Part shown: positions 43,717 through 43,734 of the stretch, piece by piece
Position numbering within the stretch: position 1 is the first letter of the stretch
Layout: the number at the start of each line of letters is the position of its first letter
NCBI RefSeq assembly: GCF_003334385.1
Contig: NZ_QOWN01000010.1
Strand: one strand, 5' to 3'
DNA: 64,000 bases
DNA from: Escherichia coli
GTDB lineage: Bacteria; Pseudomonadota; Gammaproteobacteria; Enterobacterales; Enterobacteriaceae
Program-made: the position numbers and the translations under genes
The notes under the pieces: generated by a model
The model's database searches: none
Told to the model about the DNA's origin: nothing
Seen by the model: the letters and a program-made list of their open reading frames with translations, nothing else

Positions 43717-43734
43717 TTGCAAAGCGGATGCCAG
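43717..43734 (-). promoter_or_regulatory. sigma-54 (-24/-12) promoter of the rut operon
   Basis: Minus strand reads cTGGCATccgctTTGCAa, GG and GC 10 bp apart, about 30 bp upstream of rutA ATG. Confidence 0.7.

Follow-up and report, generated by a model that had tools for sequence, protein, structure and literature searches.

The sigma-54 promoter of the Escherichia coli rut operon, the most likely RutA start codon downstream of the K-12 annotation, and a leader with a conserved block between them

The spacer between the divergent rutR and rutA genes of E. coli raises the question of where RutA begins relative to the promoter of its operon. We analyzed a window of 64 kb, meaning the whole stretch of 64,000 nucleotides, which contains the rutR-rutA region. 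Positions 43300-44100 of the window are 100% identical to many E. coli chromosomes, and 5,421 of 5,426 complete E. coli genomes contain this segment. An initial annotation had read TGGCAT-N5-TTGCA on the minus strand as a -24/-12 promoter, predicted transcription from a point near 43707, and taken this position as support for an ATG at 43689 preceded by AAGGA as the ribosome binding site. The promoter element sits between the two divergent genes:

42541..43632, minus strand: rutA coding sequence, pyrimidine monooxygenase, 363 codons plus stop
43920..44558, plus strand: rutR, TetR-family repressor gene, divergent from rutA
43718..43734, minus strand: sigma-54 -24/-12 element of rutA (rutAp), CTGGCATCCGCTTTGCA, identified by motif, conservation, ChIP-seq and gSELEX

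RutA is a full-length match to the NCBIfam equivalog TIGR03612, with a score of 726 bits against a cut-off of 498. In one genome, E. coli KFu015 (NZ_CP147130.1 2907586-2909163), the stretch homologous to window 43300-44100 carries an inserted IS1B. The match there falls into two pieces and spans an IS1 transposase plus rutA and rutR.

The sigma-54 promoter consensus is YTGGCACG-N4-TTGCW. The minus strand from 43734 to 43717 reads CTGGCATCCGCTTTGCAA, with TGGCAT-N5-TTGCA at 43733..43718, and it fits 14 of the 15 specified positions of the consensus. The GG at 43732-43731 and the GC at 43720-43719 have the canonical spacing. The pattern TGGCAY-N5-TTGCW occurs once in the 64 kb window, where 0.33 matches are expected, and at least one match was present in 25 of 100 shuffled sequences. 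A relaxed pattern, TGG-N9-TGCW, is no more frequent than expected by chance (23 matches against 23.6). Given this chance rate and the quarter of shuffles that also match, the motif alone is suggestive and not decisive. We consider the site real because of its context: it is intergenic, oriented toward rutA, conserved, and coincides with published sigma-54 binding.

To examine conservation, we searched with the 363-aa RutA against one genome per bacterial species and took the 80 closest loci, of which 79 were usable because upstream sequence was available. Counts given below for 80 sequences refer to these 79 loci plus the window. The comparison is confined to Enterobacterales (Enterobacteriaceae, Erwiniaceae and Yersiniaceae), and the 80 closest loci span Escherichia, Enterobacter, Klebsiella/Raoultella, Kosakonia, Leclercia, Buttiauxella, Pantoea, Erwinia, Serratia, Yersinia, Rahnella and others. 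All 79 usable loci carry TGGCA(C/T)-N5-(T/C)TGC(A/T) upstream of rutA. The element begins 96-106 nt before the conserved rutA ATG in most of them; in the window it is intergenic, correctly oriented and 101 nt upstream of that ATG. In Buttiauxella gaviniae, about 85 extra nt inserted into the leader move the promoter to -185 from the ATG; this insertion contains CCCCAGGAGCTTACTTGAGTAAGTGACTGGG, an ERIC/IRU-like repeat in appearance.

Published binding data agree with the motif. The 17-mer CTGGCATCCGCTTTGCA is the motif under the sigma-54 ChIP-seq peak OS10, which was assigned to rutA (FAT 6, PSSM 9.96) (PMC4591121), and gSELEX with sigma-54 holoenzyme gave a peak in the rutA/rutR spacer at 71-73% (PMC8743547). 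The literature assigns the rut operon to NtrC/sigma-54 control (PMC4325133; PMC10891134). That the match arose by chance and a different promoter drives rutA is extremely unlikely: one match per 64 kb is indeed not far above the expected rate and many E. coli sigma-54 sites are transcriptionally silent (PMC4591121), but all 79 loci keep the element at a fixed distance along with NtrC-like sites, sigma-54 binds in vivo and in vitro, a simple scan of 43550-43990 found no sigma-70-like promoter, and the operon has been placed under sigma-54/NtrC. A terminator scan of the spacer returned a single terminator-like match, on the wrong strand and at chance level. These data confirm that the element is the sigma-54 promoter of rutA, as the initial annotation proposed. 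It was already known: rutAp in EcoCyc and OS10 of Bonocora et al. 2015 are the same object, with an identical 17-mer, gene and predicted start. We report no difference in the promoter itself; what we add is the comparative evidence from the 79 loci and the consequences for the leader and the start codon.

The position of the promoter predicts where transcription begins:

43707 (+/- 2 nt), minus strand: predicted transcription start, from the -12 GC
43720..43722, minus strand: TTG that opens the mechanical open reading frame 42541..43722 (393 codons), inside the -12 TTGCA

With the C of GC (43719) set at -12, +1 falls at 43707. The rule used in the ChIP-seq paper, 19 bp downstream of the motif centre, predicts the same base, 18 nt before the K-12 start (PMC4591121). 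The start near 43707 given by the initial annotation therefore matches both predictions. EcoCyc listed rutAp with status 'P' (predicted) in 2015 (PMC4591121), and our literature search, which covered part of the primary Rut/NtrC studies, found no experimentally mapped rutA transcription start. The far-upstream TTG at 43722 had also been excluded on the basis of the promoter, and we agree: it is not a start codon because it lies upstream of the predicted +1 and is part of the -12 TTGCA.

Sites that resemble those of NtrC and RutR lie upstream of the promoter. NtrC-like dyads were searched for as TGCAC-N7-GTGCA with at most 2 mismatches, and the RutR box as the pattern TTGACCANNTGGTCAA. In the window these are:

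43841..43857, minus strand: NtrC-like site 1, TGCACTCTCATCGCGCA, centre -142, 1 mismatch to TGCAC-N7-GTGCA
43820..43836, minus strand: NtrC-like site 2, TGCATGTTTTATGTGCA, centre -121, 1 mismatch to TGCAC-N7-GTGCA
43798..43813, minus strand: RutR box TTGACCGTTTAGTCCA, centre -98, between the NtrC-like sites and the promoter

The two NtrC-like sites are two helical turns apart. At least one dyad is present in all 80 sequences and at least two in 57 of 80, and one at -141..-143 or -150..-153 is found repeatedly in the set. The RutR pattern is matched in 80 of 80, at -95..-108 in 79 and, in one locus (L075), only at -87. By chance, about 0.1 matches to these patterns would be expected per locus. 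The arrangement -142/-121/-98 of Enterobacteriaceae becomes -152/-131/-107 in Erwiniaceae and Yersiniaceae, a joint shift of about 10 bp that keeps the helical phase. The single RutR box of the spacer has been published (PMC4325133; PMC10891134). From their sequence, the two dyads are candidate enhancer sites that NtrC may occupy. Like glnAp2-type NtrC promoters (glnAp2, glnK, astC, nac), rutAp has a GG-N10-GC core with an AT-rich spacer and appears to have two NtrC-type dyads about 100-150 bp upstream on the same helical face. Unlike them, it has a RutR box between enhancer and promoter, which also serves the divergent rutR.

The position of rutAp is equally compatible with ATGs at 43689, 43635 and 43632, and therefore the promoter does not pick 43689. 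The candidate start codons and the ribosome binding site are:

43630..43632, minus strand: most likely rutA start ATG (MKIGVF..., 363 aa), from conservation, profile, PGAP and INRI-seq
43638..43642, minus strand: Shine-Dalgarno GAGGT, 5 nt before ATG 43632
43633..43635, minus strand: adjacent ATG (MMKIGVF, 364 aa), in only a few genomes (E. coli and L003-L005)
43687..43689, minus strand: ATG of the K-12 reference annotation and choice of the initial annotation, judged not to be the main start

The most likely RutA start is 57 bases downstream of ATG 43689. The optimal spacing between Shine-Dalgarno and start codon is reportedly about 5-9 nt. At the upstream candidate, only one base, a T, separates AAGGA (43695-43691) from ATG 43689. 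At the downstream site, GAGG(T), 4-6 nt and ATG-AAA-AT(T/C/A)-GG(C/T), encoding MKIG..., are found in essentially all orthologs among the 79 usable loci. In 33 of these 79, the frame upstream of the MKIGVF ATG is interrupted by a stop no more than 10 codons away, and leader lengths across the 79 differ by non-multiples of 3. The family profile gives the same boundary. Positions 1-354 of TIGR03612 align to residues 20-373 of the 382-aa form, and because profile position 1 corresponds to residue 20, the RutA family begins at ATG 43632. PGAP places the rutA start at 43632, and only the K-12 reference record (1072863..1074011) uses 43689. UniProt, like the K-12 reference, keeps the 382-aa RutA, and both 363/364-aa constructs and the 382-aa form (5WAN) have yielded crystal structures.

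The tandem ATG-ATG that gives MMKIGVF is found in E. coli, in loci L003 and L004, and in Leclercia (L005). The other listed orthologs have a single ATG, and for this reason 43632 is the orthologous start.

Initiation at these codons has been measured in vitro. INRI-seq captures retapamulin-arrested initiation complexes on a synthetic E. coli transcriptome in the PURE system (PMC9825163). Its rutA oligo runs from window position 43719 downwards and includes both AAGGA and ATG 43689 (PMC9825163). The annotated rutA start gave 0 footprints in 5 of 5 replicates, with the transcript present at 145 CPM (PMC9825163), and the in-frame ATG 54 nt downstream (43635) showed a 102-CPM peak in 4 of 5 replicates (PMC9825163, Tables S2-S4, S6). 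The peak-to-codon tolerance is +/-3 nt, so that this peak does not separate 43635 from 43632. Because INRI-seq is performed in vitro on a shortened T7 transcript, whose 5' end lies 12 nt upstream of the natural +1, it may not reproduce the folding or the factors found in vivo. The pattern is like that of other K-12 start reannotations from INRI-seq and Ribo-RET, such as uidR, where the annotated start is silent and a strong in-frame downstream ATG has a Shine-Dalgarno sequence. Unlike uidR, rutA is not discussed in the INRI-seq paper, its data are in the supplementary tables only, and it is silent in rich medium.

Sequence variation between two Escherichia lineages points in the same direction. 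E. coli SCPM-O-B-8794 (L004, 1440-1520) has a natural CGA to TGA stop within the 19-codon extension, and its RutA core is 99% identical. When this locus is compared to the window, the extension has 4 non-synonymous differences (one of them the stop) to 1 synonymous, and the core 6 to 79 (Fisher p = 0.0004). The same CGA to TGA stop is present in about 15 of 5,400 complete E. coli genomes (e.g. NZ_CP075484.1), and more than 99% of E. coli genomes keep the reading frame of the extension open. These data indicate that the 57 nt at 43689-43633 are very probably leader and not coding sequence, with a substitution pattern resembling that of non-coding DNA.

It is improbable that both starts are used in E. 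coli, with a minor long isoform from 43689 beside the main 363/364-aa form. Some ribosomes could be recruited by an AUG that lies 18 nt from the 5' end beside a purine tract, and the extension is open in most E. coli genomes; however, the INRI-seq signal at 43689 is nil, the reading frame is not conserved, and one natural lineage has a stop codon in the extension and still keeps its RutA under purifying selection.

The version proposed initially, a real promoter with RutA translated as 382 aa from ATG 43689 behind AAGGA, we regard as highly improbable. The K-12 RefSeq annotation, the open frame in the great majority of E. coli genomes and the fact that the 382-aa form was expressed and crystallized (5WAN) speak for it, and a leader of 18 nt is physically possible. 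Against it stand the 1-nt spacing from AAGGA, the absence of footprints in all five INRI-seq replicates from a transcript that was present, the PGAP start, a family profile that begins at residue 20, and the non-coding-like substitutions. The extension is also missing, frameshifted or stopped in most listed orthologs, including a lineage labelled E. coli. The claim that the promoter supports ATG 43689 with its AAGGA therefore does not survive, and RutA most likely starts at ATG 43632, or at the adjacent 43635 in E. coli.

Taken together, we have high confidence in a model in which rutAp, with its NtrC and RutR sites, drives transcription from about 43707 into a leader of about 75 nt that precedes RutA at 43632/43635. 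In this model the E. coli rutABCDEFG operon is transcribed from rutAp, a sigma-54 promoter activated by NtrC. The sigma-54 holoenzyme would sit on GG(-24)/GC(-12) at 43732-43719, and it would be activated from two putative NtrC sites centred near -142 and -121; the RutR operator (-98) lies between these sites and the promoter. Transcription would begin at about 43707, the exact +1 being predicted from the -12 position. Translation would begin at ATG 43632, or in vivo possibly at the adjacent 43635, served by GAGGT at 43642-43638, and would yield the 363-aa protein of the orthologs. ATG 43689 and AAGGA would then lie inside the leader, both as parts of a conserved dual-GGA block (motifs at +15 and +24).

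The promoter itself is not new; NtrC/sigma-54 control of the Rut pathway at this point is textbook knowledge, and sigma-54 binding there has been shown genome-wide. Correcting the RutA start is a minor point, which bears on expression constructs, structure numbering and proteomics databases. It is very probable that the 382-aa RutA of K-12 and UniProt carries 19 spurious N-terminal residues; PGAP already has the short form.

If the 57 nt are leader, the question becomes what the leader contains:

43633..43706, minus strand: rutA 5' leader, about 75 nt from the predicted +1 at 43707, including K-12 codons 1-19 (57 nt)
43691..43695, minus strand: AAGGA, first GGA motif (GGA at +15..+17), putative ribosome binding site of the initial annotation
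43678..43688, minus strand: TGCAGGATGCA, with core GCAGGATGC at +21..+29, second GGA motif (+24), the most conserved leader sequence
43669..43706, minus strand: possible enclosing helix P1, 5' arm ACGCGGC at 43706-43700 and 3' arm GCCCCGT at 43675-43669

In an alignment of promoter-to-ATG sequences, one block of the leader could be matched between families, whereas most of the leader could not be aligned. Most leaders have a GGA at +12..+18, and a second GGA motif recurs at +21..+29. The two are 9-11 nt apart, and the second is embedded in GCAGGA(T/A/C)GC(A). GC.GGA.GC is present in 62 of 80 leaders, against an expectation of about 0.004 per random 75-nt leader. An unbiased k-mer count over 75 unique leaders found GCAGGA in 56 and CAGGATG in 41; the maximum for any 7-mer in shuffles was 7. 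ATG 43689 forms the first three bases of the palindrome-like AUGCAGGAUGCA. The dual-GGA block (window 43669-43706, homologous in loci L003-L082) is common to Enterobacteriaceae, Erwiniaceae and Yersiniaceae, and it is conserved far beyond normal intergenic DNA between enterobacterial families. It is cleanly missing from Enterobacter hormaechei/cloacae, which have 32-nt leaders, from Buttiauxella and from some Yersinia. Because some lineages lack it in this way, the block is dispensable. We found no published description of it.

We asked whether the block could be explained by RNA structure. An Rfam scan of 43560-43960 at E<=10 returned only a meaningless 10-bit match to a Bacteroides sRNA. The leader fold is not unusually stable, with z = +1.08 for the leader in the window and a mean z of +0.45 for 62 leaders, and a riboswitch-like stable structure was rejected on this basis. 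The second GGA motif can form a predicted 4-bp hairpin with GGA in the loop. This hairpin is predicted in 40 of 62 minimum free energy folds, and the second GGA is unpaired in 44 of 62. RNAalifold on 47 leaders keeps only two pairs of it, invariant G-C pairs flanking AGGAN with nil covariation. A larger helix, P1, was proposed by hand and would pair +2..+8 with +33..+39 around an internal C-C mismatch. In P1, 81.6% of cells are paired, against 10-53% when the arms are slid, and one G-C/A-U pair covaries. The mean z of the P1 duplex is -0.78. An enclosing helix of at least 4 bp appears in 55 of 62 minimum free energy folds, with sequences that differ between families, in the same set of leaders whose mean z is +0.45. 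These modest statistics lend P1 weak support as a modelled structure.

A short upstream ORF (M-Q-D/E-A-x-P/Q-R...) that regulates rutA by translation is an unlikely explanation of the block. In 43 of 62 leaders, CAG-GAW-GCA is preceded by an ATG, GTG or TTG in the same frame, and the peptides so deduced look similar across genera. However, the start codon is missing in the other 19, the frame relative to rutA is mixed (28/14/20 leaders in the three frames) and the position of the stop is erratic. In addition, positions 1-2 of the 'fourth codon' vary while its third is invariant, the reverse of a coding pattern, and INRI-seq detected nil initiation at this ATG of E. coli in vitro. Given the missing starts, mixed frames, anti-coding substitutions and zero in vitro initiation, the upstream ORF was rejected as the main explanation.

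The leader core resembles the repeat units of the Csr small RNAs: GCAGGA(U/A/C)GC equals CsrB units such as CGCAGGACGCG and AGCAGGAAGCA. E. coli CsrB has 22 GGA motifs, 9 of which are CAGGA[ACU]G. The 9-11 nt between the leader GGA motifs compare with 10-14 nt, a common spacing of successive GGA motifs in CsrB. The leader has at least two GGA motifs with at least one in a CAGGA(U/A/C)G context, as expected of CsrA-binding leaders. The CsrA SELEX consensus is RUACARGGAUGU, with GGA in a hairpin loop (quoted in PMC5694010). Unlike consensus sites, the predicted rutA hairpin has only 2-4 bp, unsupported by covariation. Also unlike classical CsrA sites, the rutA GGA motifs (+15, +24) lie 40-60 nt upstream of the Shine-Dalgarno sequence, which reads GAGAGGT and contains no GGA; in classical repression a CsrA site overlaps the Shine-Dalgarno sequence or the start codon. 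Because the motifs do not overlap the Shine-Dalgarno sequence, the mode of action, if CsrA binds, would be non-classical. Known modes of this kind include 5'-end protection, as at flhDC, and effects on Rho.

We suggest, because the core equals CsrB repeat units, that the block is a candidate CsrA-binding site. In this reading, the 57 nt would be a conserved regulatory leader with a 5'-proximal dual-GGA module (AAGGA at +15 and GCAGGAUGC at +21..+29), possibly enclosed by a short helix. This reading is tentative, and we give about the same weight to another RNA-level function of the block, such as a 5' stabilizer or a site for an sRNA or another protein. A literature search for rutA together with CsrA yielded nothing relevant. 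The CsrA CLIP-seq supplements, from cells that were not nitrogen-limited, have no rutA entry (PMC5694010), as expected because the operon is silent without nitrogen limitation.

If CsrA does bind, an NtrC/sigma-54-driven pyrimidine-catabolic operon would be under post-transcriptional Csr control, acting for example by 5'-end protection or altered mRNA fate and not by Shine-Dalgarno occlusion. If CsrA or some other RNA-binding regulator acts on the block, nitrogen scavenging from pyrimidines would be connected with carbon-storage and stationary-phase control. The leader block is a modest, testable lead.

Two published RNA interaction datasets contain side observations on the locus. A CsrA CLIP-seq peak, peak_110, lies in the rutR coding sequence at K-12 1074528-1074704 (about window 44206-44382, plus strand) (PMC5694010), so the Csr system may already reach the rut regulon via the rutR repressor. 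In RIL-seq of nitrogen-starved E. coli, rutA:::uhpU chimeras were recovered with 41 and 55 reads in the N- samples (OR 3.3, p = 2e-4) (PMC10954441). The rutA segment in these chimeras spans K-12 1073510-1073988, about window 43188-43666, and hints at an Hfq-mediated contact of rutA mRNA with the UhpU sRNA.
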